Below are positions 11,786 to 48,989 of a stretch of 48,989 bases of DNA, piece after piece (position 1 is the stretch's first letter; each line of letters begins with the position of its first letter). Source of the DNA: an uncultured bacterium. Its GTDB lineage: Bacteria > Patescibacteriota > Patescibacteriia > Magasanikbacterales > GWA2-37-8. The stretch spans positions 1 to 48,989 of the forward strand of contig CALCZC010000013.1 of assembly GCA_937903605.1 (NCBI GenBank), written 5' to 3'. The position numbers were made by a program, and so were the translations under genes. The notes under the pieces are model-generated. The model was given only the letters and a program-made list of their open reading frames with translations. It was not told where the DNA came from and made no database searches.

Positions 11786-11996
11786 CAAAAAATACTTCCG
11801 ATTTATCGGAAGTATTTTTTTGTTTTGTAAGTAACGGGAGGAGAACAGGAAAAGGGAGAAAACGGGAGTTTTCTCTTGTTGAGGAAAGGTATTGGAAAAC
11901 CTGAAGGTTTTCCAAAGAGACGCAAAGCGCCGAGTGAGATTTCCCGTTACCCGCTCTAAATAAAGGTACTCCAGTTTATCTGGGGTATTTTTTTTT
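11772..11996 (+). repeat. tRNA-Gly 3'-end duplication enclosing a palindromic mini-element
   Basis: TCCCGTTACCCGCTC at 11772-11786 and 11942-11956, each followed by a related terminator. Inverted copy GTAACGGGAG at 11831-11840, with internal hairpins. Confidence 0.8.
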
Positions 11997-20485: not shown

Positions 20486-20670
20486 CTAAAAAGAGACCCA
20501 ATAGTTTGGGTCTCTTTTCGGACTTGAACGCCGGACCGATATTGCGCGACGCAGGCGAGCGAGCGCAATCGGGAGGCGGTGGTCAGACCGAGGAGCCGGA
20601 AGGCGACGAGAGTCGCGACCAAGTCCGAGTCCCGCAACTAAAAAGAGACCCAATAGTTTGGGTCTCTTTT
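20468..20670 (+). repeat. 51-bp direct repeat (tRNA-fMet 3' end + terminator) enclosing a 101-bp GC-rich palindromic element
   Basis: 20468-20518 is identical to 20620-20670. The element starts with TCGGACTTGAAC, the inverse of the T-arm GTTCAAGTCCGA. Confidence 0.9.
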
Positions 20671-35555: not shown

Positions 35556-36368
35556 TCAAAGAGGGCTTTTGATATTTTTGATACTGGGATTAGTCACGTG
35601 AGTATATATTTGCGTAGTGCGGATATTGGCGTGGCCCAAAAGCTCTTGTACATAACGTACATCAACGCCGTTTTCTAGTAGGTGAGTGGCGAAACTATGG
35701 CGTAAACTATGAAAGCTAGCGGGTTTTTTGATCCCTGATTTTTTCAATGCTTCTTCAAATATGGCTTGCGCGGTTCTGACGGTGAGTTTGCCACCACGAT
35801 TACTTTCAAAAAGATAATCCTCGCCGTTTCGTTCACCTGTCAAAAAATATAAATCATTTTTGATATTTTCTGGAATAACGGTTATCCTGTCTTTTTTGCC
35901 TTTGCCTTGCCTTACTTTCAAAATTAGTTCATCAAGTAAAACGTCTTTTATTTTCAAATCAACAACTTCACTCACTCGCAATCCCGCTCCATAAGCTAGA
36001 GATAATAGTAACAAATGTTTTTTATTGGTAACTTGAGATAAGATATTTTTGATTTCTTCTTTACTCAAAACTTCCGGCAAAGAATTGTTTCTTTTGGCAA
36101 ATTTTAGATCAACTCTTTGGTTATTTTTCAAAACATCATGATAGAAAAATTTTATAGCGTGTAAATACAAATTAATTGTTTGAGGAGAAAAATGCTTGTC
36201 TTGTTTTGAAAGTAAAAATTGTCTGATTTTGTCTATACTCAAAACCTCAAAATCAACTCTCAAAAAGATAAAATAATCTCTTAAACAGCCAAGATAGGAG
36301 TCAATGGTCCGAGGGCTATAATTACGTAGTCGTAACTCAATCCGAGTTTTGTCTAAAAATTCTTGCAT
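35556..36368 (-). CDS. IntI-like tyrosine recombinase (short form, no I2 insertion)
   Basis: LRLRNYSPRTIDSY N-domain; catalytic GLR, GKGKKDR, HSLRH, LLGH and TQIY; C-terminal SPL as in IntI; divergent from a cassette array. Confidence 0.92.
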   Translation of the reverse strand: MQEFLDKTRIELRLRNYSPRTIDSYLGCLRDYFIFLRVDFEVLSIDKIRQFLLSKQDKHFSPQTINLYLHAIKFFYHDVLKNNQRVDLKFAKRNNSLPEVLSKEEIKNILSQVTNKKHLLLLSLAYGAGLRVSEVVDLKIKDVLLDELILKVRQGKGKKDRITVIPENIKNDLYFLTGERNGEDYLFESNRGGKLTVRTAQAIFEEALKKSGIKKPASFHSLRHSFATHLLENGVDVRYVQELLGHANIRTTQIYTHVTNPSIKNIKSPL

Positions 36369-36473
36369 ATTTTGATAAAAAAGAGTAAAATTTGTATATA
36401 TTTATATACAACAACATTATACATAAAATTCGTAAAATATACAAATTTAGGTATATTTCACGTAGTTTTATTC

Positions 36474-36493
36474 GTATAACAACCAGTTGCGCA
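36474..36493 (+). other. Candidate attI site
   Basis: GTATAAC-AACCA-G|TT, an inverted AAC/GTT core with a 5-bp spacer, 105 bp upstream of the integrase start. The first mini-cassette begins at the G|TT. Confidence 0.6.
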
Positions 36494-36639
36494 AAATTTC
36501 GCTTCGCTCATTTTGCGCAATGTGCGGCGCATAACTGCGCCAGCTGTGCTTCGCGAAGCTTCGCACAACTGTCGCATATCCAAAATGGCGATCTGATGAC
36601 AAAGTCATCATCTCACCACTTCGGATTATGCGCCGCACA
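36487..36639 (+). mobile_element. 153-bp gene-less mini-cassette type A, copy 1
   Basis: TTGCGCAAAAT...GCCGCACA, identical to copies 2-4; inserted at G|TT. Confidence 0.9.
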
Positions 36640-36826
36640 TTATACGCAATTCAAAAAATATTTTTCTTTTAATAAGGAATTTTGACAGGCTTTTTTAAAG
36701 GGGAATAAATTTGTTTTTTTATTTATTAGAAAGGGGTATAAGGTGTTTTCTCCGCTTCGCTACGAAAACGATTTATTTATAAGGGGAAAACGAATACAAT
36801 ACAAATACCTATCACGAAAATAATTT

Positions 36827-38629
36827 ATGCCAAAAATTAAGGATATGCCTAAGATTGACCGCCCAAGAGAACGATTTTTGCAAAAAGGGGCTGATGCACT
36901 TTCAAAGAGTGATCTTTTGGCAATTCTTTTGGGTAGCGGAATTAAGGGGAAAAATGTTAGACAGCTTTCGGAAAATATTATTAAAAAATTCGGTAAAAAC
37001 TTTTTAAATATCACCGTTGATGATCTTTTAGAAATTTCGGGAATTGGACAAGCTAAAGCATTACAAATTGCTTCCGCTGTTTCGTTAGTAAAAAGATTTT
37101 ACGACGAGGACAAAACAAACGAAATTGTTATAAAAAACTCTCAAGATGTTTTATCCCTTACTTATGATTTAAGAGACAAGAAAAAAGAACATTTAGTTTG
37201 TCTTTATTTGAACGCACGAAATGTTTTGTTGAAAAAAGAAATTGTTAGTGTAGGTCTTTTAGACAAAGCATTGCTACATCCGAGAGAAATTTTTTACCCT
37301 GCAACCGAATTAAACGCCGCCAGTGTAATTTTGGTTCACAATCACCCTTCGGGCGATTCTTCACCTAGCGAAAAAGACAACCAAATTATTGAAAAAATTG
37401 TGCAAGCCGGCGAGATCATGGGAATACCTGTTATTGATTTTATTATTATTTCGACAAATGGAAATTATAGTTTTTTTGAAAAGTTAAAAGGTCAAAACAC
37501 AAATTTTGATTATGTAGCGGATGGTGTACAGGGAACGCTTTTTAATCTGTTGGAAATTGAAAAATCACCTTACGAGGTAACGATAAAAAAGATCGAAAAG
37601 CCATATTTTCATTTTTCAAAGACAAAAAGCAATTCATTCCAGCTACAAAATAGAAGATATTTAGGAAACAAGCATAAATTACTTGGTTTTATTGAAGATA
37701 TTGTTTCTGAAAAATGCAATGGAATAAAATCATTTTGCGATATTTTTGCCGGCACAGGCGTTGTTGGCGAAAGATTTAATAAGCCCACAATCAAAGTTAT
37801 TTCAAATGACATACTTTTTAGTAACTACGCTTGTCTAAAAGCTTTTCTCGGCATAAACACAAACATAGATAACATTACGGAAAAAATAAAAATTTTAAAT
37901 AACCTACAAGCTACTGAAGATAATTATTTCTCAAAGCATTTTGGAAATACTTATTTTTCACTAGAAAACGCTAAAAAAATTGGGGCTATCAGAGAAGAAA
38001 TAGAAAATATTGCAGAATCCGAAGAAGAAAAAAACGCTCTCATTTGCTCGCTATTATATGCAGTTGACAAAGTTGCAAACACCGTCGGTCACTATGATGC
38101 CTTTCGTAAAGATTTAGACATGATTCAGCCAATAATGCTGTTAACGCCAGATATTGATTACTCAAACAATGCAAATAACGAAGTTTACAAGGAAGATGCA
38201 AATATTTTGATTAGAAAAATTTCTTGTGATGTATTGTATATCGACCCGCCATATAACTCACGTCAATATTCAGATGCTTATCACTTGCTTGAAAATCTTG
38301 CGGAATGGAAAAAACCAGAAGTCGAAGGAGTGGCAAAAAAAATGGATCGTTCACACATCAAAAGTTCCTACTGCCTCAAAAATGCGACGCAGGCATTTGA
38401 AGATTTAATCAGAAATGCGGATTGTAAACATATTTTATTATCATATAATAATACTGGGGATTCAAAAGACGGACGATCAAATGCCAGAATTTCTGACAAT
38501 GACATTTTAAGAATATTAAAAAACAAAGGAGAAGTTGAAATTTTTGAAAGAGATTACAAAGCCTTTACCGCGGGCAAGAGTAATGGCGACGGAAATGCGG
38601 AAAGAATTTTTTATTGCAAAGTAAACTAA
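36827..38629 (+). CDS. RadC (JAB) - D12-class N6-adenine DNA methyltransferase fusion
   Basis: PRERF...LLAILLGSG, HPREIF and VHNHPSGDSSPSEKD (RadC), then RRYLGNK, DIFAGTG and YIDPPYN (MTase), in one frame. Confidence 0.9.
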   Translation: MPKIKDMPKIDRPRERFLQKGADALSKSDLLAILLGSGIKGKNVRQLSENIIKKFGKNFLNITVDDLLEISGIGQAKALQIASAVSLVKRFYDEDKTNEIVIKNSQDVLSLTYDLRDKKKEHLVCLYLNARNVLLKKEIVSVGLLDKALLHPREIFYPATELNAASVILVHNHPSGDSSPSEKDNQIIEKIVQAGEIMGIPVIDFIIISTNGNYSFFEKLKGQNTNFDYVADGVQGTLFNLLEIEKSPYEVTIKKIEKPYFHFSKTKSNSFQLQNRRYLGNKHKLLGFIEDIVSEKCNGIKSFCDIFAGTGVVGERFNKPTIKVISNDILFSNYACLKAFLGINTNIDNITEKIKILNNLQATEDNYFSKHFGNTYFSLENAKKIGAIREEIENIAESEEEKNALICSLLYAVDKVANTVGHYDAFRKDLDMIQPIMLLTPDIDYSNNANNEVYKEDANILIRKISCDVLYIDPPYNSRQYSDAYHLLENLAEWKKPEVEGVAKKMDRSHIKSSYCLKNATQAFEDLIRNADCKHILLSYNNTGDSKDGRSNARISDNDILRILKNKGEVEIFERDYKAFTAGKSNGDGNAERIFYCKVN

Positions 38630-38634
38630 AATCT

Positions 38635-40470
38635 ATGAAAAAACCTTGGTCAATAACAACAACTACCAGAAGTCCTTACCGACTAAAAGAGCAACTGCGA
38701 GTATTAGTTGATAATTTTTCCGGCTTTGAGTGGACAAGAGAAAATCAGATAAATTTTCAGATTTCTTTGATTCAACACCGCTTATATGGACACAACGAAG
38801 ATACCGGTTTTTCTCAACAATTTTTAAACGGCTTGTCGGAAACACACAAAGAAATATTCACTGATTTTTCGCATATCTTAACTTTTGAAGAAGCTAAAGA
38901 GATATTTGATAGCAAAAATTACGAGGATCCCTCAATGAGAGGTCGACAATCCTTTAACCCATTTAAAAAATTCGGATTTGTGAGATTGAGAAAGAAAATT
39001 TTAGAAATAACACCATTCGGTGAGAATTTTTTGTCTAATGAGCATGATCTTTCAGATATATTTTTTAGTAGTTTTATAAAATGGCAATTACCTAATCCCG
39101 ATAATTCTGGCTACAAATTGGCTGACGGCTACAATATAAAACCATTTATTGGAATACTCCACCTTATACGCAAGGTGAATGAAAAATCTTTGGCATTAGG
39201 AGAAAAAAATAAAGGAATTAGTAAGGCAGAATTTTCATTATTTGGCCCCTCGCTAGTAAATTTTAATGACGTTGATTCATACGCTGAAAAAATTATTGGC
39301 TTACGACAAAAATTGAATGGAAAAAATAAGCAAGAACAAAAAGCTATTTTTGAGCAGTATAAAAAAACTTTTGCAAAAGAATTTCTCCAGTCCGACAATC
39401 CAAAAGGAGTAAATAAACTCCTTAAAAACTTGAAAGATTACGGCGATAATGCCATTAGGTACTTCCGATTAACTAACTATATCTATATTCGTGGTGGTGG
39501 TTTTTATATTGATTTAGAGCCGAGAAGGTCTGTTGAAATTAACGCCTTGCTAGATTTTGACAATGCACAATCCAAAACATTCGCAACTAAAGAGGCGTAT
39601 TTTGATTACATTTCCGACATTGCGCAACCGCATCTCCCTTGGGAAACAAAAGAAAAGTACATTGAGATTGTTGCCAAACTTATTGAAGAAGTAAAGAATT
39701 ATGAAACTGAATTAGAAAAAGAGCCCGTTGTAATACAGGACTATTCAAAATTGGAGGAAACTGAACTAAAAACATACATTGCCGAGCTTAGAAAATACCG
39801 ACGAGAATTACAAGATCAAGAAGCTCACAGTAAATCCCAAGACACAGAAGCAATAAAATCCTATATCCAAGAATTGGAAAATATTTTTGATGCCGATGAC
39901 AAACCTATACTGCTTGAAAAACTTTCATCGTTAGGCTTGCACGCACTAAACGATGCTCTAAAAATACAACCAAATTATCCTGTCGGAGACGACAACGAGC
40001 CAACATTTACAGCACCAGCCAACACGCCCGATATAGAATGCTTTTATAAAAGCTTCAATGCTATTTGCGAAGTAACAATGCTCACGGGACGAGATCAATG
40101 GTATAATGAGGGTCAGCCAGTTATGAGACATTTAAGGGATTTTGAAAGTAAATATAATGACAAAAACTCTTATTGCTTGTTTATTGCGCCAAAAATTCAC
40201 AGGGATACAGTCAATACTTTTTGGACTGCTATAAAATATGAATATGAAGGCAAAAAACAAAGGATAATTCCCCTGTCAATCGGCAATTTTGTTTCTCTTC
40301 TGAATATCTTGGTTAAAATAAAATCAGAAAATAAATTTTTGAAGCACAGCGAAATTTCCAGACTGTATGATGAAATAATCAATTCATCAAATTCTTTTAA
40401 CGATTCCAACGAATGGCTCAAAAATATTCCTGCGACTATTTCGTCATGGCAAGAAAGCCTAACATTCTAA
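38635..40470 (+). CDS. AlwI/Nt.BstNBI-family type IIS restriction endonuclease
   Basis: WSITTTTRSPYR, DPSMRGRQS and PTFTAPANTPDIEC...EVTMLTGRDQWYNEGQPVMRH; flanked by two MTases. Confidence 0.85.
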   Translation: MKKPWSITTTTRSPYRLKEQLRVLVDNFSGFEWTRENQINFQISLIQHRLYGHNEDTGFSQQFLNGLSETHKEIFTDFSHILTFEEAKEIFDSKNYEDPSMRGRQSFNPFKKFGFVRLRKKILEITPFGENFLSNEHDLSDIFFSSFIKWQLPNPDNSGYKLADGYNIKPFIGILHLIRKVNEKSLALGEKNKGISKAEFSLFGPSLVNFNDVDSYAEKIIGLRQKLNGKNKQEQKAIFEQYKKTFAKEFLQSDNPKGVNKLLKNLKDYGDNAIRYFRLTNYIYIRGGGFYIDLEPRRSVEINALLDFDNAQSKTFATKEAYFDYISDIAQPHLPWETKEKYIEIVAKLIEEVKNYETELEKEPVVIQDYSKLEETELKTYIAELRKYRRELQDQEAHSKSQDTEAIKSYIQELENIFDADDKPILLEKLSSLGLHALNDALKIQPNYPVGDDNEPTFTAPANTPDIECFYKSFNAICEVTMLTGRDQWYNEGQPVMRHLRDFESKYNDKNSYCLFIAPKIHRDTVNTFWTAIKYEYEGKKQRIIPLSIGNFVSLLNILVKIKSENKFLKHSEISRLYDEIINSSNSFNDSNEWLKNIPATISSWQESLTF

Positions 40471-40473
40471 CTT

Positions 40474-41250
40474 ATGGGTATGAAAACAAACATTATTTAT
40501 AACGACGATTGCGTAGATATACTCAAATTAAAAATTGATAAGGAATCAATTGATCTTATTTTTGCCGATCCGCCATATAACTTATCTGGCAACGGACTAT
40601 CTTGGAAAGGCAATAAAACTGGTGGTGATTGGTACATGGTAAATGAGGCATGGGACAGAATGTCCGCACCAGAATACCTGCAATTTACCAGAAAATGGAT
40701 TGGTGGTGCCTATCGTGCATTGAAAGACGGCGGATCAATTTATATTTCCTGCACTTATCACAATATCGCAGAAGTCATGATTGTTTTGAAGCAACTGGAT
40801 TTCAAAATCAATAATATCATCACTTGGCAAAAAACAAATGCGATGCCGAATATGACAAGACGAGTTTTTACACACTCTACTGAATTTGTAGTTTGGGCGG
40901 TAAAAGGCAAAAAATGGATTTTTAACTACGAAGAATTAAAGAAACTAAACCCCGACAAACAGAAAGACGGATCTCTAAAACAAATGCGAGACGTTTGGCA
41001 ATTGCCTCTCGTTCAGGGCAAAGAAAGAATCAGAGGAAATGATAACAGGGCTATTCACCCCACCCAAAAGCCAGAAGAAATGTTGCGTCGTATTATTCTC
41101 GCATCTTCGAACAAGGGCGATATTGTTCTTGATCCATTTTTAGGTAGTGGGACGACAACTTTTGTAGCAAAAAAACTTGGGAGGAAATGGATAGGAATAG
41201 AAAAGGACAAAAAATATTTTACGGTTGCGGAAAAAAGAATGAATTATTAG
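40474..41250 (+). CDS. beta-class N4/N6 DNA methyltransferase
   Basis: [14 protein letters not shown] and [11 protein letters not shown]. Confidence 0.93.
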
Positions 41251-41254
41251 AAAT

Positions 41255-43279
41255 ATGAACAATAATGAATCAAAAACAAACGGCTGGCTACATAATAGGT
41301 TTTTCCTATTTTTAACTTTTACTATTGCTTTGCTTGGTGCAAATTATTTTTTTACAGGAAACCTTTTTCCTAGCACTAATACAAAAGAGCTTTGGTTTTA
41401 CTCTGGAATTTTCATGGTTCTTTTTTCGATTCTTTTTATTGAGCCGTATTATACATCTCCTAAAAATGTTATAACCAACGCCATCCCGCTATTGCTTGTT
41501 TTTCTTTCGATAGAAAATACCTTTGAAAACAAAATCTTATGGTGGATTGCGGTTGCAATAATTTTAGCTCTACTTTTCTTTTCAATTATCGCAATTGCGT
41601 TAGAGGATAAAAATAAAAGTCCAAATCATTTGAAAAATAAATTTTCAGAATTGTTAAAAAAACTTGTAGTAATTGTCGGCAAGGGAAAAATTATCTATTC
41701 CGCAGTTTTTCTTTTATTCTTATTCGTTAACATTACATCAAAACCGGCAGAAGATTTTAATCAGATATTTGATAGTTATTTTGTGGTTTTACTAATCTTT
41801 TGGGGCTTAATTCTTTCTATTGATCCGAAAGAAATAAATAATACTTTTTCTTTAAAGAAAAAAATACTTAATGATGATGCACTAGGCGAAATTTTTGGAG
41901 TTCAATCTAGAAAAATATTTCTGGTAAAACTTTTTGAGGATAGAAAAGAAATAAAAAAGTTTGACATAGTAAGATTTAGATATTCAATGCAGGATTCAAA
42001 TGATTTTTTAATATCAGGCATTGTTTTTGACACATATTTACTTAATCAAGAGAAGTGGGCAAAGGTTTTGCAATTAGGGAAAATAGCAAAAAACAGTTCT
42101 AGTGCCGAAAAAAATGTTGTTTATAAAGTATCAAATAGCGAAGAAATCGACACACTGGAAAAAGAATTACGCACAGATCGCTTTGTTGGTATTGTGATTG
42201 AAGGCTCAAACATAGGAAAAATTAAATTTGAGTATTCAAAAAAACAAGAGGATTTACAAGAGGGAGATTTAATCGAACTAAAAACAAATGATAAAAGATT
42301 ATTTTATCAAGTAATTAACGGACTAACTGAAAAGGAATCTTTGGAACATCGAAATGAAACAAGTTTTATTAAAGGCGAGGCAATTCAACTTGGAGAATGG
42401 AAAAACGATGATCTCTCCTTTCAAAAATATGGCTGGGTACCTTCCATAAATACGCCTATTTTTAAAGCTGACACGTCTGATATTGAAGTGAAGAGTTTTA
42501 ATTATCCCGAATACAAACTTGGAATAATTCCCAATACTTCATTGCCTTCTGTAATTAACTTAGCTCAAGCAGTTAGTCATCATATGGCTCTATTAGGCGT
42601 TACTGGATCAGGTAAATCCTTTCTCGCTCGCGAAATTATAAAAGAATTAACTAATGATACAAAAATAATTTGTGTTGATTTTACAAGTGAATGGAAAAAG
42701 GAGGTTGAAAAAACAGCAATTACTCCAACAATATTAAACAAGGACAATATAGACACTTTTTTAAGCGGTACGGATAAAATTGGGATTGTTGAATTGCCCG
42801 CAATGAGTAATACAGTTGAAATTATAAGTGCCACAGAAAAACTTTTTGAAGCAATATTTAATTTTGCAAAAAAGAAATACGACGAACAAAATCCAACAAA
42901 AATATCTCTCGTACTTGAAGAAGCTCACACAATAGTTCCTGAAGAAAAATTTTTAGGTGTTAATAATTGGGATAGTAAGGCTATAGTAAATAAGATGGGG
43001 CAGATTGCCTTACAGGGCAGAAAATACGGAATAGGCTTACTTGTCATCGCACAAAGAACTGCAAATGTTTCTAAAACAGTTTTAACGCAATGTAATACAG
43101 TTATTTGTTTTCAAGCATTTGACGAGACTAGTTTTAATTTCTTAGGAAATTATGTCGGCAAAGATCTCGTTCTGACACTTCCAAATTTAAAACAATACCA
43201 TGCAATTGTTACTGGCAAAGCTATCAAATCAAATGTTCCAATGATTATTGATTTAGAAAGAAAAAAGGAGAAAGAATAA
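41255..43279 (+). CDS. Membrane-anchored HerA/FtsK-like (DUF87) ATPase
   Basis: About 6 N-terminal TM helices, HAS-barrel-like middle, HMALLGVTGSGKS, LVLEEAH and GRKYGIGLLVIAQR. Confidence 0.85.
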   Translation: MNNNESKTNGWLHNRFFLFLTFTIALLGANYFFTGNLFPSTNTKELWFYSGIFMVLFSILFIEPYYTSPKNVITNAIPLLLVFLSIENTFENKILWWIAVAIILALLFFSIIAIALEDKNKSPNHLKNKFSELLKKLVVIVGKGKIIYSAVFLLFLFVNITSKPAEDFNQIFDSYFVVLLIFWGLILSIDPKEINNTFSLKKKILNDDALGEIFGVQSRKIFLVKLFEDRKEIKKFDIVRFRYSMQDSNDFLISGIVFDTYLLNQEKWAKVLQLGKIAKNSSSAEKNVVYKVSNSEEIDTLEKELRTDRFVGIVIEGSNIGKIKFEYSKKQEDLQEGDLIELKTNDKRLFYQVINGLTEKESLEHRNETSFIKGEAIQLGEWKNDDLSFQKYGWVPSINTPIFKADTSDIEVKSFNYPEYKLGIIPNTSLPSVINLAQAVSHHMALLGVTGSGKSFLAREIIKELTNDTKIICVDFTSEWKKEVEKTAITPTILNKDNIDTFLSGTDKIGIVELPAMSNTVEIISATEKLFEAIFNFAKKKYDEQNPTKISLVLEEAHTIVPEEKFLGVNNWDSKAIVNKMGQIALQGRKYGIGLLVIAQRTANVSKTVLTQCNTVICFQAFDETSFNFLGNYVGKDLVLTLPNLKQYHAIVTGKAIKSNVPMIIDLERKKEKE

Positions 43280-43541
43280 ATGGGGTAAGCAAATAAAAGG
43301 CAAAAATTCCCTCCCCTTAAACCCCTTCCTTTTTGCCTTTTATTTGAAGAGAATAAGGAGTTTTGGATTTTGGGCATTCACCCCTAACCCCTCTGCCCAA
43401 AATCCAAAACAAAAAAACAAATTTATGATTATTGAATAAAAAGCCTGTCAAAATGAAATTGAATGAAAAATATTTTTTGAACTCGCTCCTTTCAATCGCG
43501 CCCCGCTGCGCTCTCGCCTCCGCTACGCTACGGCTCGGGGC

Positions 43542-43640
43542 GTATAACACAGCGTATGCGGTTCGGGGCTCGGCTCGCCCCTCACCCATATTTTTGCTCC
43601 CGTTGGTCGCAAAAACATCGCATACGCTGGAACGTTGCGC
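43542..43640 (+). other. attC site 1
   Basis: R'' GTATAAC, L'' CAGCGTATGCG, L' CGCATACGCTG, then GAAC-G|TT. CGTATAAC complements the cassette start G+TTATACG (36640). Confidence 0.85.
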
Positions 43641-43787
43641 AAAATTTCGCTTCGCTCATTTTGCGCAATGTGCGGCGCATAACTGCGCCAGCTGTGCTTC
43701 GCGAAGCTTCGCACAACTGTCGCATATCCAAAATGGCGATCTGATGACAAAGTCATCATCTCACCACTTCGGATTATGCGCCGCACA
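43635..43787 (+). mobile_element. 153-bp mini-cassette type A, copy 2
   Basis: Identical to 36487-36639. Confidence 0.9.
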
Positions 43788-43811
43788 TTATATGAAATAC
43801 ATCACAAAATT

Positions 43812-44612
43812 ATGATAATCGACAGTCATTTACATCTATCATACTTAGATGAAGAGAAAAAAAATCTTTTCGAAGTAAAAAAAGAACTTTTAGAATCAAT
43901 GGAAAAATACGGTATTGATTATTCGATTGTCATTCCCGATAACGTGCCAAACCCAAAATGCGCTGATACAGAAACAATGTTTAATATCATTGGAGACGAC
44001 AAACAGTTTTTTTCAATGGGAACCATAAATATTTTTCAAGATATAGAAAAACAAATATTAAATTTAGAATCACTGATAACGGCCAAAAAAATTTGCGCTA
44101 TCAAGCTTTTTCCTGGACACGACCCCTTCTATCCTGTCGATGAGAAATGCCAACTAATTTATGAATTATGCGCTAAACACGATATTCCAGTTGTTTTTCA
44201 TACTGGTGCAAACACTGGAAATGCTGATTGCGCAAAATATAATGATCCAAAATACATTGTCGAAATTGCAAAAAAATACAACACCTTAAAAGTTGTCATT
44301 TCACATTTTTTTTGGCCTAAGATGGAATATTGTTATGAGGCAACCAAAGACTTGAAAAATATTTATTACGATACTTCAGCAATGGCAGATGATGAAGTTG
44401 TTGAAAGTTCTGGTGGCTGGGATAAAGTTGTAGAAATATTGAAAAAAACTGTTTTACATAAACCTAAAAACGTTTTGTTTGGCACTGACTGGCCAATGTG
44501 CCCTGTCGATAAACACATAAAATTAATCAAAGATTTGGGATTAGATTCCAGAACCGAAGAAAAGATTTTTTTTCTTAACACAGTTGATCTATATAAACTC
44601 GAAATTTTGTGA
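43812..44612 (+). CDS. Amidohydrolase_2-family metal-dependent hydrolase (cassette gene)
   Basis: IIDSHLHL, IKLFPG, VVFHTG, ISHFFWP, YYDTS and LFGTDWP. Start moved to ATG 43812. Confidence 0.88.
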   Translation: MIIDSHLHLSYLDEEKKNLFEVKKELLESMEKYGIDYSIVIPDNVPNPKCADTETMFNIIGDDKQFFSMGTINIFQDIEKQILNLESLITAKKICAIKLFPGHDPFYPVDEKCQLIYELCAKHDIPVVFHTGANTGNADCAKYNDPKYIVEIAKKYNTLKVVISHFFWPKMEYCYEATKDLKNIYYDTSAMADDEVVESSGGWDKVVEILKKTVLHKPKNVLFGTDWPMCPVDKHIKLIKDLGLDSRTEEKIFFLNTVDLYKLEIL

Positions 44613-44620
44613 TGTACTTC

Positions 44621-44777
44621 ATATAACACCTGCCTATGCGGTTACAGAATTTTTCCAAATCCAATTAACGCCAAGGAATAAAAAATTCTTCCACCCAAAT
44701 TTTTATCTTTCTTTTCTTAAGAGAATTAACATCAAGGAAGAAAGATAAAAACTTCGCATCATCCGGATACGTTGCGC
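44621..44777 (+). other. attC site 2
   Basis: CATATAAC complements the cassette start G+TTATATG (43788); CTATGCG...CGCAT arms (imperfect, possibly hybrid); GGATAC-G|TT. Confidence 0.75.
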
Positions 44778-44924
44778 AAAATTTCGCTTCGCTCATTTTG
44801 CGCAATGTGCGGCGCATAACTGCGCCAGCTGTGCTTCGCGAAGCTTCGCACAACTGTCGCATATCCAAAATGGCGATCTGATGACAAAGTCATCATCTCA
44901 CCACTTCGGATTATGCGCCGCACA
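44772..44924 (+). mobile_element. 153-bp mini-cassette type A, copy 3
   Basis: Identical to copy 1. Confidence 0.9.
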
Positions 44925-44943
44925 TTATATAAAATTTTATACT

Positions 44944-45270
44944 ATGAAAAAATTGATTGTCGTTTTATCCAGCGGTGCATTGGTTCTACCAGAAATAGCT
45001 AATGCGTGTTATTTAACGCCCAATTTTAAGAATATTTTTTTAAGTGGCATTATTGGCCTGGTCTTATCCGCCATACTGATAACATTAATTCATAAAAAAA
45101 TAAGTAAGTTATTTGCAAAAAAATACAAATATTATTTGCTGTTTATACCAATTTACATAATAATGACCTTGATACTCATTATGATTATCCCGCTGGATAA
45201 AACGACAATTGAATGTGGGAATACTACAGGAAATGAGCAACTACCAGAAAATTTTGGCAAAACGCCATAA
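44944..45270 (+). CDS. Small membrane protein (cassette gene)
   Basis: 108 aa from ATG 44944, signal-like N-terminus and 2 TM helices. Confidence 0.7.
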   Translation: MKKLIVVLSSGALVLPEIANACYLTPNFKNIFLSGIIGLVLSAILITLIHKKISKLFAKKYKYYLLFIPIYIIMTLILIMIIPLDKTTIECGNTTGNEQLPENFGKTP

Positions 45271-45313
45271 ATACCGGAAATCAAAACGATATTTTTTCAT
45301 AGTATAAAACTTT

Positions 45314-45726
45314 ATATAACAGCGTATATACGGCTCACAAGCGAAATAAAATTATTTTTTCTTTTATGCGTGGAGATAACAACATTTTACGGTTAGACGG
45401 CGCAAATATGGATATTGATTTGACTTCCGGGGATAAAACTTCGTGGAAGCAAACAGAATGTCCATGGAATGAGGCCGAGGGTACAAATGAACACAAATGC
45501 GCCGTCAAAAATGTTTCTATTTGCAAATATTTCTGCGGAATTGAGTATTTAGACAATGTTTTGTGCTGTTATCCCAACAAAAATATGCTGGTGGATAACA
45601 AACAGAAAAAATAATTATATTTTTAATCGCTTGTTCGCCCAAATTCGGTTTCCGTTTTGTGTTGGCGCTCCGCGCAATTTTAACACAAAACTACAACCGA
45701 ACTTCGTATATACGCGTACATTGCGC
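45314..45726 (+). other. attC site 3, with a ~400-bp variable region containing an ORF
   Basis: TTATATAAC complements the cassette start G+TTATATAA (44925); GCGTATATACG (45322-45332) pairs with CGTATATACGC (45705-45715); then GTAC-A|TT. Confidence 0.75.
45366..45614 (+). CDS. Small Cys-rich hypothetical protein inside attC3
   Basis: 82-aa ATG ORF with 6 Cys; protein-like composition in otherwise structured DNA. Confidence 0.55.
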   Translation: MRGDNNILRLDGANMDIDLTSGDKTSWKQTECPWNEAEGTNEHKCAVKNVSICKYFCGIEYLDNVLCCYPNKNMLVDNKQKK

Positions 45727-45873
45727 AAAATTTCGCTTCGCTCATTTTGCGCAATGTGCGGCGCATAACTGCGCCAGCTGTGCTTCGCGAAGCTTCGCAC
45801 AACTGTCGCATATCCAAAATGGCGATCTGATGACAAAGTCATCATCTCACCACTTCGGATTATGCGCCGCACA
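45721..45873 (+). mobile_element. 153-bp mini-cassette type A, copy 4
   Basis: Identical to copy 1. Confidence 0.9.
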
Positions 45874-45934
45874 TTAAGTGAAATTGAATTTTGACAACGA
45901 TTGTAAAATACAAGTTCATTTATAAAATAACCTT

Positions 45935-46345: not shown

Positions 46346-46432
46346 ACTTAACACGGGATACACGGTAAAGTCTTTCGCGGAAAGACTTTACTCAAATTGC
46401 TACGCAACTTCGCTTATCCCGGAACGTTATCT
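46346..46432 (+). other. attC site 4
   Basis: CACTTAAC complements the cassette start G+TTAAGTG (45874); CGGGATA...TATCCCG arms; internal hairpin GTAAAGTCTTTC/GAAAGACTTTAC; GAAC-G|TT. Confidence 0.85.
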
Positions 46433-46596
46433 AAAATGTCTCTCGCTCCGCTCGCTCCATTTTAGATAATGTGGCGCGTATATCTCCGCTGTTCTCCTCG
46501 CGTCGCTTCGCGACACTTCAGATAACAGCGGATAATCTGTAATATCTGTCTGACGACTTCGTCGTCATCCAGCTACTACAGATTATCCGCGCCACA
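46427..46596 (+). mobile_element. 170-bp gene-less mini-cassette type B
   Basis: TTATCTAAAATG/CATTTTAGATAA hairpin, then AATGTGGCGCG...CGCGCCACA|TT main stem with two branches; same layout as type A with a different sequence. Confidence 0.8.
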
Positions 46597-46659
46597 TTGT
46601 GTGAAATATTTTAGAAAAATTTAAATTTATATCATATTTATTAATAATATATAATTACC

Positions 46660-48665: not shown

Positions 48666-48694
48666 ATAAAACACTCCGATAAGGAGTGTTTTAT
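48666..48694. terminator. Bidirectional terminator
   Basis: ATAAAACACTCC-gataa-GGAGTGTTTTAT. Confidence 0.8.
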
Positions 48695-48989
48695 AGTGCC
48701 CGCCCCAAAGGGGCCCCTTCGGGGGTGTGGGAATCTGCTTCGCCTCTCGTCGTCTTCCGACTCCTCGGGCTAGCCACCAGCTCGCGGTTTTACTCGCCCG
48801 CAAGCTCGTAAAACATCGCTCCGCTGTTCTCATCCTGACGCGAGCAAACAGTTTTGCTCGCTCCCCAGACAAAATAACACAGACCAAAAAAGGTCTGTGT
48901 TATTTTGTCTGGGGCGGGAATTCCTCGTCGTCTCGCCGACAAATATCGGCTCGACTCCTTGCCCTGGGCAGCGTCGGATTCACACTGTG
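48695..48989 (-). repeat. Tandem GC-rich palindromic elements related to the tRNA-fMet-associated element
   Basis: The reverse complement of 48744-48778 matches 20578-20612 at 30/35. A perfect 23-bp inverted repeat lies at 48863-48885/48892-48914. Confidence 0.75.

Follow-up and report, generated by a model that had tools for sequence, protein, structure and literature searches.

Gene-less, self-complementary cassettes at the junctions of an integron-like array in an uncultured patescibacterium

Contig CALCZC010000013.1 (assembly GCA_937903605.1), from an uncultured patescibacterium of the Magasanikbacterales, is composed of 48,989 base pairs (bp), and this whole stretch is referred to below as the window. 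It contains an integron-like array in which four gene cassettes, C1 to C4, lie in one orientation beside the gene of a tyrosine recombinase, and all five junctions of this four-cassette array are occupied by small units that carry no gene. The order is attI-left, A, C1, A, C2, A, C3, A, C4, B, TTGTGTGAAAT; the four type A units are identical, and the type B unit has a different sequence and the same fold. We consider that the units are probably hyper-mobile, selfish cassettes of the integron type, made of an attC site without cargo and moved in trans by the recombinase of the array. They belong to a family that is widespread in arrays of the Candidate Phyla Radiation (CPR) and apparently undescribed; in the literature searched there is no published description of integron-like or tyrosine-recombinase cassette arrays, or of such units, in Patescibacteria or the CPR. 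In the motifs given below an arrow marks the recombination crossover, foreign loci carry L numbers and sequencing runs carry X numbers.

Results

General features of the units

A first-pass annotation, made from the letters of the window alone, had claimed four identical units of 153 bp inserted exactly at the crossover. Comparison with MAFFT and BLAST confirms 100% identity between the four copies and extends it over 156 bp (36487-36642, 43635-43790, 44772-44927 and 45721-45876). The cassette limits, TT at the start and CACA at the end, leave 153 bp to each type A unit, and the remaining three identical bases, TTA, are the start of the downstream cassette. The claim of an insertion at the crossover without target duplication also stands: every copy is preceded by ...G↓ or ...A↓ and followed by the TT of the next cassette, in-silico removal of the copies restores GTTATAC, GTTATAT, GTTATAT and ATTAAGT, and natural unit-free junctions of exactly the form left by such a removal were found elsewhere. 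The 3' crossover of type A is A↓TT, not G↓TT. In the probable source run the 156-bp unitig has a depth of 23.2, against 3.8 to 7.1 in its flanks, and separate unitigs connect it to each of these flanks, so that an assembly artefact is unlikely. With repeats that do not differ from one another, however, the succession of C1 to C4 in the window depends on the assembler.

The fold that had been proposed for type A was recovered, with a terminal hairpin of 11 bp, a main stem of 14-16 bp and two branches. Its energy is -70.6 kcal/mol as RNA (z -7.1), and -54.3 kcal/mol when the minus strand is folded as DNA (z -9.2). The 16-mer of the main stem, AATGTGCGGCGCATAA, is present eight times, in both arms of each of the four units, where 0.01 occurrences are expected by chance.

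Read from its 5' end, a unit begins with R'a, TTnnnnAAAAT, which has the form of any gene-cassette start, followed by a short loop and by R''a, ATTTTnnnnAA, which pairs perfectly with R'a to give the terminal hairpin. The middle part has TGTG and a GC-rich arm, and then a stem composed of an internal G↓TT-like R'b, a hairpin and R''b (nnnnnAAC). The 3' part consists of L'', a variable hairpin, (A)ACTTCG, L' and a GC-rich arm with a terminal CACA. From R''b to its end the unit carries motifs of the attC of the neighbouring gene cassettes, including (A)ACTTCG-L'; judged by its sequence, this stretch is homologous to a gene-cassette attC, and the 5' half is a lid complementary to that attC. A loop of 12-41 nucleotides (nt) stands where a normal cassette has its cargo. 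With the whole unit folded, nearly all of its bases are paired, and in a circularised unit CACA↓TT would complete a continuous perfect stem, of about 25 bp in type A.

This architecture is conserved among the relatives of the units. The common four-helix fold was found in 20 of the 20 subtypes tested, with compensatory double changes in 34 of the 54 pairs of the 20-subtype alignment; paired cells amount to 86.9%, where controls with slid partners reach 31-44%, and covariation scores 0.365, compared with 0.05-0.07 in the controls. Selection of the members of the family made no use of the two branches, and these show covariation in 19 of 25 pairs; the L''/L' stem does so in 10 of 12. R''b is complementary to G plus the start of its own unit at 73 of 100 variable positions, against 48 after permutation (p<0.0005). 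No reading frame is open across the subtypes, and half of them (10/20) have stops in all six frames.

The sequence GCGNAGC is known to form an extraordinarily stable DNA mini-hairpin (PMC13037366). The loops of the units are made of this motif, with GCGNAGC on the bottom strand and hence GCTNCGC on the top one. Among 33 distinct units it was counted 60 times in this orientation, against five in the reverse orientation and about two in shuffles, and 19 of its 24 top-strand occurrences in the window lie inside the 10-kb array. This strand asymmetry points to folding of the bottom strand as DNA. The bottom strand is the one recombined by integrons, and not the one that would be transcribed with the cassettes. 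The earlier suggestion of a non-coding RNA or terminator module gains no support from these strand-specific DNA hairpin motifs on the non-coding strand or from the annotation searches: in the window only tRNAs reach the gathering score of Rfam, a permissive scan gave matches at chance level, the best one on the unit being a microRNA model with 24.7 bits (cut-off 50), and a consensus scan found no sigma-70-like promoter or terminator inside the unit on the + strand, the counts for the region being at shuffle level.

Distribution and optional presence

Metagenomes were scanned with the pattern AATGTGSSGCG...CGCSSCACATT, which matched at least 120 contigs. Among the matches listed, to which the rest of this paragraph refers, at least about 50 low-GC contigs yielded at least 58 units; these measure 150-191 bp and represent 34 distinct sequences, which fall into about 15 subtypes. 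Every unit begins with TT and terminates in CACA; every one is preceded by an attI left half (...ATAA[AC]AAC[CG]AG↓) or by the end of a gene-cassette attC (...ATAYNCNNRAACG↓ or ...RAACG↓), and is followed by a cassette start, TTRnnnRAAAT. The unit lies directly at attI in 13 of 58 cases, in a sample chosen for having units. Near-identical copies of type B adjoin attI in L095 and L098. Copies are found only at att crossovers, as had been expected of targeting driven by the integrase: none lies outside an att junction in the 49-kb window and about 50 foreign loci, and all have one orientation. Viral contigs, phages and plasmids gave no unit matches.

About 70 of the approximately 77 unclassified matches, on high-GC contigs, are unrelated long palindromes beginning with AATGTG and were discarded, and the few low-GC ones are units truncated by the end of the contig or with an imperfect terminal hairpin. 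In several of the high-GC contigs (L012, L015, L016, L032, L040, L106, L117 and others) long perfect palindromes begin with AATGTGGCGCGGGCGCC... and seemingly represent one conserved locus; they have no relation to the units of the CPR.

When species-representative genomes were scanned with exact 20-mers, one true copy of type A was revealed, in L007 (CAYUIA010000002.1), identical at 156 of 156 positions; six matches in Poribacteria have only about 21 bases in common with it and are unrelated. Otherwise L007 and the window share only the attI-like 56 bp (about 82% identity) and one unrelated match of 50 bp, which supports recent spread as the cause of the 100% identity, one of the two causes offered at first pass. 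In L007 the unit stands directly after the attI left half, with no adjacent integrase gene, and the next junction, CGAAACG↓TTGTGCGAAAT, is unit-free. L007 is labelled as a metagenome-assembled genome of an uncultured gammaproteobacterium; it is low in GC, has small genes and carries an attI, unit and cassette of CPR type, and the label or the bin is probably wrong.

Orthologous junctions and cassettes without the insert were found, the same attI and the same cassette leader occurring both with and without a unit in related arrays, and an obligatory adaptor or spacer, the other explanation put forward initially, is thereby refuted. A weight matrix built from known junctions identified many unit-free junctions in related arrays. 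Units occupy one of five junctions in L102, two of five in L065 and one of four in L010, and no unit was found within 10 kb in five arrays sampled via the recombinase rather than via the unit. Full occupancy of the junctions is a trait of the array in the window, not of the family.

In L009 the unit is at attI; in L087 and L100, whose flanks are 85-91% identical to that of L009, a gene cassette of 420 bp lies between attI and the unit, the pattern expected from a new cassette inserting at attI. A homologous cassette adjoins attI without an intervening unit in L027 but follows a unit in L100. L133 and L134 have the same recombinase protein, 99% identical to that of the window, and near-identical attI left halves, followed by a gene cassette in L133 and by type A in L134. 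Upstream of the cassette leader TTATACGCAATTCAAAAAATATTTTTCT stands one of four different unit types or, with nothing between, an attC. Regarding sequencing runs, X3 has unit-free attI and attC↓C1-leader junctions, C3 is absent in X3 and X4 (sludge/wastewater runs), the attC of C2 is directly followed by another cassette start in X22 and X23, and C4 is followed by A in place of B in X2. A contig of X4 has lost exactly the 553 bp of C4, leaving A↓B. Across the runs type A has at least seven upstream and at least eight downstream contexts.

Recombinase and attI

The window has an attI beside a divergent integrase gene and then a cassette array in one orientation, which is the layout of an integron platform. 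The recombinase matches the Pfam family Phage_integrase (1e-42) and a SAM-like N domain. It scores 225 bits with NF040815, "XerA/integron integrase", just above the cut-off of 220, but only 208 bits with TIGR02249, integron integrase, under the cut-off of 265 and with the match split into two stretches, and 133 with PRK15417, for which the cut-off is 435. The nearest solved structures, at about equal distance, are the archaeal XerA 4a8e (8e-42) and the Vibrio IntI4 2a3v (1e-38), and the alignment with IntI4 is interrupted after residue 169, the site of the IntI-specific insertion. On these alignments the recombinase is without the integron-specific additional domain (I2 helix), and the platform is integron-like in its working, not a canonical integron. 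There are at least 7,700 homologues of about 270 amino acids (aa), and those with a source name come mostly from Patescibacteria and are often annotated XerD.

The attI-like segment together with the first unit A has 95% identity over 213 bp to positions 4219-4431 of L007. The motif ...TTCG(N)ATAA-N7-AG↓TT is found about 118 bp from the integrase start in L095, L098, L009, L128, L132, L135, L136 and L133/134, and the distance from the start codon to the first cassette is about 118 bp in the four unit-bearing contigs checked for spacing. Homologues of the recombinase, with 42-94% identity, are encoded on at least 12 unit-bearing metagenome contigs. In L132 the recombinase/attI locus lies about 6 kb from dnaA. 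At the far end of the array, TTGTGTGAAAT can be read, from its sequence, as the right half of the original attI. The positions of all features are given in Table 1.

Table 1. Features of the integron-like array, with positions in the window
Feature	Position	Strand	Remarks
Tyrosine recombinase, Xer/IntI-like	35556..36368	-	270 aa; divergent from the array
attI-like left half	36431..36486	+	ends ...TATTCGTATAA-CAACCAG↓; resembles dif left arm plus spacer
Type A unit, copy 1	36487..36639	+	attI↓A↓C1
Copy 1, terminal hairpin	36487-36520		
Copy 1, main stem	36521-36534 with 36626-36639		
Copy 1, branch 1	36536-36576		holds R''b CGCACAAC at 36562-36569
Copy 1, branch 2	36579-36625		
Gene cassette C1	36640..43634	+	RadC-Dam methylase fusion, AlwI-type endonuclease, N4/N6 methylase, HerA-like ATPase
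Type A unit, copy 2	43635..43787	+	junction: C1 attC ...GGAACG↓A↓C2
Gene cassette C2	43788..44771	+	amidohydrolase; own attC ends GGATACG
Type A unit, copy 3	44772..44924	+	
Gene cassette C3	44925..45720	+	129-aa membrane protein and 82-aa open reading frame inside long attC; ends GCGTACA
Type A unit, copy 4	45721..45873	+	
Gene cassette C4	45874..46426	+	131-aa membrane protein; attC ends CCGGAACG
Type B gene-less cassette	46427..46596	+	170 bp; sequence differs from type A, fold same
TTGTGTGAAAT, putative right half of original attI	46597..46607	+	array end; compare L007 ...CGAAACG↓TTGTGCGAAAT

Gene cassettes and other structured elements

C1 to C4 are genuine cassettes, as each R'' box is complementary to the first bases of its own cassette. 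In C1, a 7-kb operon for restriction-modification and an ATPase, the attC lies at about 43520-43634 and its R'', GCGTATAAC, pairs with the start of the cassette, TTATACGC; R'' boxes complementary to their own cassette start are also present in C3 (TTTATATAAC) and C4 (CACTTAAC). It was considered whether the unit is the true attC of each gene cassette, forming a composite attC, and this is ruled out by the matched R''/L''/L'/R' that the cassettes carry themselves and by their occurrence without a unit. The attC of C3 (45314-45726) is about 400 bp long, with the open reading frame of 82 aa, rich in Cys (45366-45614), between the L'' and L' arms. A cassette of L007 (4428-4876) has a layout like that of C3, with R''-L'' before the open reading frame.

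A leader of about 130 nt (window 36640-36800) is shared by several cassettes and reads TTATACGCAATTCAAAAAATATTTTTCT ... GGGGAATAAATTTG ... followed by the hairpin GTGTTTTC-TCCGCTTCGCTAC-GAAAACG. It is also present in L014 (2191), L027 (4469 and 7280), L062 (3089), L102 (3164) and, on the minus strand, in L120 (at 1162 counted on the reverse complement), and L128 and L136 have a hairpin part similar to that of this leader. The copy in the window holds a promoter-like TTGACA-18-TAAATT, and the leader may be a common promoter or regulatory module.

Outside the array, at 11787-11955 and 20487-20640 of the window, a structured module, GC-rich and about 130-170 nt long, lies downstream of tRNA-Gly(UCC) and another downstream of tRNA-Met. 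These modules begin with the antisense of the tRNA T-arm, finish with a duplicated tRNA 3' end (CCCGTTACCCGCTC; AAGTCCGAGTCCCGCAAC plus the terminator) and have top-strand loop motifs of GCGAGC type. It is possible that they are related to the units and have integrated, in opposite orientation, at tRNA genes. The end of the window (48690-48989) is also GC-rich and highly structured, with a long perfect hairpin at about 48855-48915 and no Rfam match at gathering score.

Discussion

In the window and the foreign loci the units follow the rules of cassettes and not those of transposons, and on this ground we class them as cassettes: they are bounded by crossovers, have an attC whose R'' matches their own start, move independently and contain no protein-coding gene. 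The first-pass annotation had proposed a selfish parasite, similar to miniature inverted-repeat transposable elements (MITEs), that uses the integrase. A cassette at the crossover and no transposase in the array of the window agree with this proposal, but the likeness to MITEs holds by analogy only, as the rules followed are those of cassettes and not of transposons. Their optional presence, their multiple copies, their identity in genomes that are unrelated and the lack of any coding or promoter signal make it most likely that the units are selfish hitchhikers, under selection for efficient recombination. Their identity across genomes, although the family tolerates wide sequence change, favours the same conclusion.

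In the mechanism proposed here, the 270-aa recombinase would act on the folded bottom strand of a unit at the (G/A)↓TT crossover, the partner site being attI or the attC of another cassette, as in the exchange of integron cassettes. The product would be resolved by replication, by analogy with integrons and CTX phage, and re-insertion would increase the copy number, as the multiple copies suggest. As side effects, the units would provide additional recombination sites and 153 bp of homology between cassettes.

Several points weigh against this interpretation. Canonical integron integrases read the folded attC by means of the I2 insertion, and the recombinase of the array is without it. The recombinase may instead be the housekeeping Xer of these bacteria, single-strand recombination being an assumption by analogy, and with an attI that resembles dif and no I2 insertion its chemistry could differ from that of canonical integrons. 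The most stable fold pairs the spacer TGTG/CACA fully and has an outer-stem crossover at A↓TT, not G↓TT, unlike a canonical attC; an alternative fold via R''b would contain an unpaired bulge, about 6 nt in size and comparable to the GAAC bulge in the neighbouring gene cassettes. The family pattern demands AATGTG...CACATT, and sequences lacking a terminal hairpin were not kept as members; this hairpin, with part of the main stem, is therefore an ascertained feature. No circle junction or skip of 153 bp is present in the assembled contigs of four DNA runs, whose unitigs cannot show rare forms, and no unit-free attI↓C1 junction was seen for the window genome in assembled unitigs, which drop rare variants. 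Finally, the term "selfish" is argued from an absence of function.

A more specific version of the selfish reading, which we offer tentatively as possible, regards the units as minimal replicators that parasitise integron-like arrays, a kind of "integron satellite", and are excised via a pre-formed junction. In the integrated unit the terminal hairpin would stack on the main stem, and the two crossovers, ...G↓TT (5') and ...CACA↓TT (3'), would abut on one helix. Such a junction could let a Xer-like recombinase without I2 excise a fully paired single-stranded circle with no synapsis of two sites. If this were true, the family would document the interconversion of duplex-type Xer sites and folded attC sites, as in the proposed Xer-to-IntI transition.

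The alternative that has to be weighed first, although we consider it unlikely, is that the units are gene-less cassettes maintained by selection for a regulatory role, in which they would equip the downstream cassette with a promoter or with a structure that insulates or stabilises. Gene-less cassettes with a sense promoter are documented (PMC11014356), a unit stands before every gene cassette in the window, and the genes of C2 and C3 begin 19-24 nt past the unit, without a promoter of their own in a consensus scan. Type A was also detected, at a depth of 3-6, in one metatranscriptome (together with the attI junction) and in one run labelled RNA-Seq, a signal that is weak and may be due to DNA carry-over. 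However, the unit itself has no sigma-70-like site on the + strand, conservation is found in the recombination boxes and in the hairpin motifs of the strand that would not be transcribed with the cassettes, and most junctions elsewhere are unit-free, including those before homologous cassettes.

Rather improbable, in our judgement, is that the units are facultative recombination helpers, kept for the benefit of a portable perfect fold that would aid the capture, excision or shuffling of cassettes, either via the recombinase or via RecA acting between the 153-bp repeats. Every gene cassette in the window is flanked by units, the copies within an array are identical, and the precise deletion of C4 in run X4 uses the 3' crossover of the unit. 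The frequent position of the unit at attI, the landing place of incoming cassettes, would also suit a helper, although that count is drawn from a sample selected for units. Nevertheless, the gene cassettes own a complete attC with an R'' matched to their own start and occur in unit-free arrays, and cassettes enter at attI upstream of the unit, not at the unit (L087/L100).

It is highly improbable that the units are non-autonomous transposons targeting att sites (a MITE, a palindromic element of the IS200/IS605 type or an IS1111-attC-like element) with a transposase elsewhere. The absence of target duplication, the richness in hairpins and the specific short insertion site are indeed also traits of IS200/IS605 derivatives, and a Y1 transposase gene of this type is located within one related cassette array (L132, 6192-6794). 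But the ends of the unit match the cassette crossover to the base, it starts with the R' consensus of cassettes and has an internal R'' complementary to that start, and the 3' half is homologous to a gene-cassette attC. Moreover, the array of the window and most loci have no transposase, transposon-type terminal inverted repeats are absent, and all copies found are in arrays, in one orientation. A remnant of a group II intron, considered because the minus strand begins with TGTGCG, was rejected, as a unit of 153 nt falls far short of the length of such an intron and is bounded by cassette crossovers.

We give hardly any credence to a small structured RNA gene or riboswitch-like leader, or to an assembly artefact. 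In favour, the fold is very stable and covarying and each unit lies upstream of a + strand gene. Against this, no Rfam family is reached at gathering score, the mini-hairpin asymmetry indicates the opposite strand, the boundaries are recombination crossovers, and the unit occurs in independent assemblies and several runs with differing flanks and with a depth that fits its copy number.

If selfish cassettes are the correct reading, integron-like arrays can fall prey to minimal forms of the substrates on which they act, much as MITEs parasitise transposons. Gene-less cassettes themselves are known, but we found no description of conserved, cargo-free, self-complementary cassettes that multiply in arrays and move between species. 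The approximately 15 covarying subtypes constitute a natural series of substrates for recognition by short Xer/IntI-like recombinases, and this series is relevant to the origin of single-strand recombination in integron integrases, which descend from Xer ancestors (PMC4792948, PMC7790495). In genomes and metagenomes the units could also serve as markers for arrays without a canonical IntI, which searches that require IntI would probably miss. With identical 153-bp repeats at every junction, short-read assemblies break and the order of the cassettes can be scrambled.

Comparison with known systems

Insertion sequences of the IS1111-attC kind and group IIC-attC introns are elements that target attC. 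Like these, and like MITEs and the palindromic elements of IS200/IS605, the units are small or specialised, exploit integron sites or hairpins, make no target duplication and are non-autonomous. Unlike all of them, the unit stands at the crossover itself and has the ends of a cassette; features of a transposase or an intron are absent, and its length is far below that of a group II intron.

The CTX phage integrates via a folded single strand that mimics a duplex site, and the pdif modules of Acinetobacter use the host Xer at dif. As in such dif-integrating elements, the recombinase described here is Xer-like, and its attI (CGCATAA / TTCGTATAA, 7 nt, TTATATGAAAT) resembles the dif site of E. 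coli, which is GGTGCGCATAA-TGTATA-TTATGTTAAAT (PMC3025954). In contrast to CTX and pdif, there are arrays of small cassettes beside the recombinase gene, with R''/L''/L'/R' in the style of integrons and, by analogy, a presumed crossover of one strand, and the phage and plasmid sequences searched gave no phage or plasmid context for the units.

Sedentary chromosomal integrons, for example those with the Vibrio cholerae repeats, have species-specific, structured attC repeats of about 120-150 bp, of types that depend on the host. The array of the window likewise has highly similar structured repeats between the cassettes of one array. The V. cholerae repeats, however, are the attC of each cassette, whereas here the cassettes have heterogeneous attCs of their own and the unit is an extra, separable element, present or absent at each junction.

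The gene-less cassettes of Vibrionaceae superintegrons (Blanco et al. 2024, PMC11014356) and of the oral integrons of Treponema (PMC6557892) are likewise bounded by crossovers, have a recombination site and no gene, and lie among gene cassettes. In the Vibrio study, individually chosen non-coding cassettes were assayed for promoter activity (PMC11014356). The units described here differ from those of Vibrio in that the part outside the attC consists of a conserved lid, complementary to the attC of the unit itself, and a terminal hairpin, and in that one architecture extends over about 15 subtypes, multi-copy and identical within arrays, without a promoter signal. The recombinase of the platform differs as well, having 270 aa without the integron-specific insertion. 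The closest known kind of element is the gene-less integron cassette, present here in a non-canonical platform.

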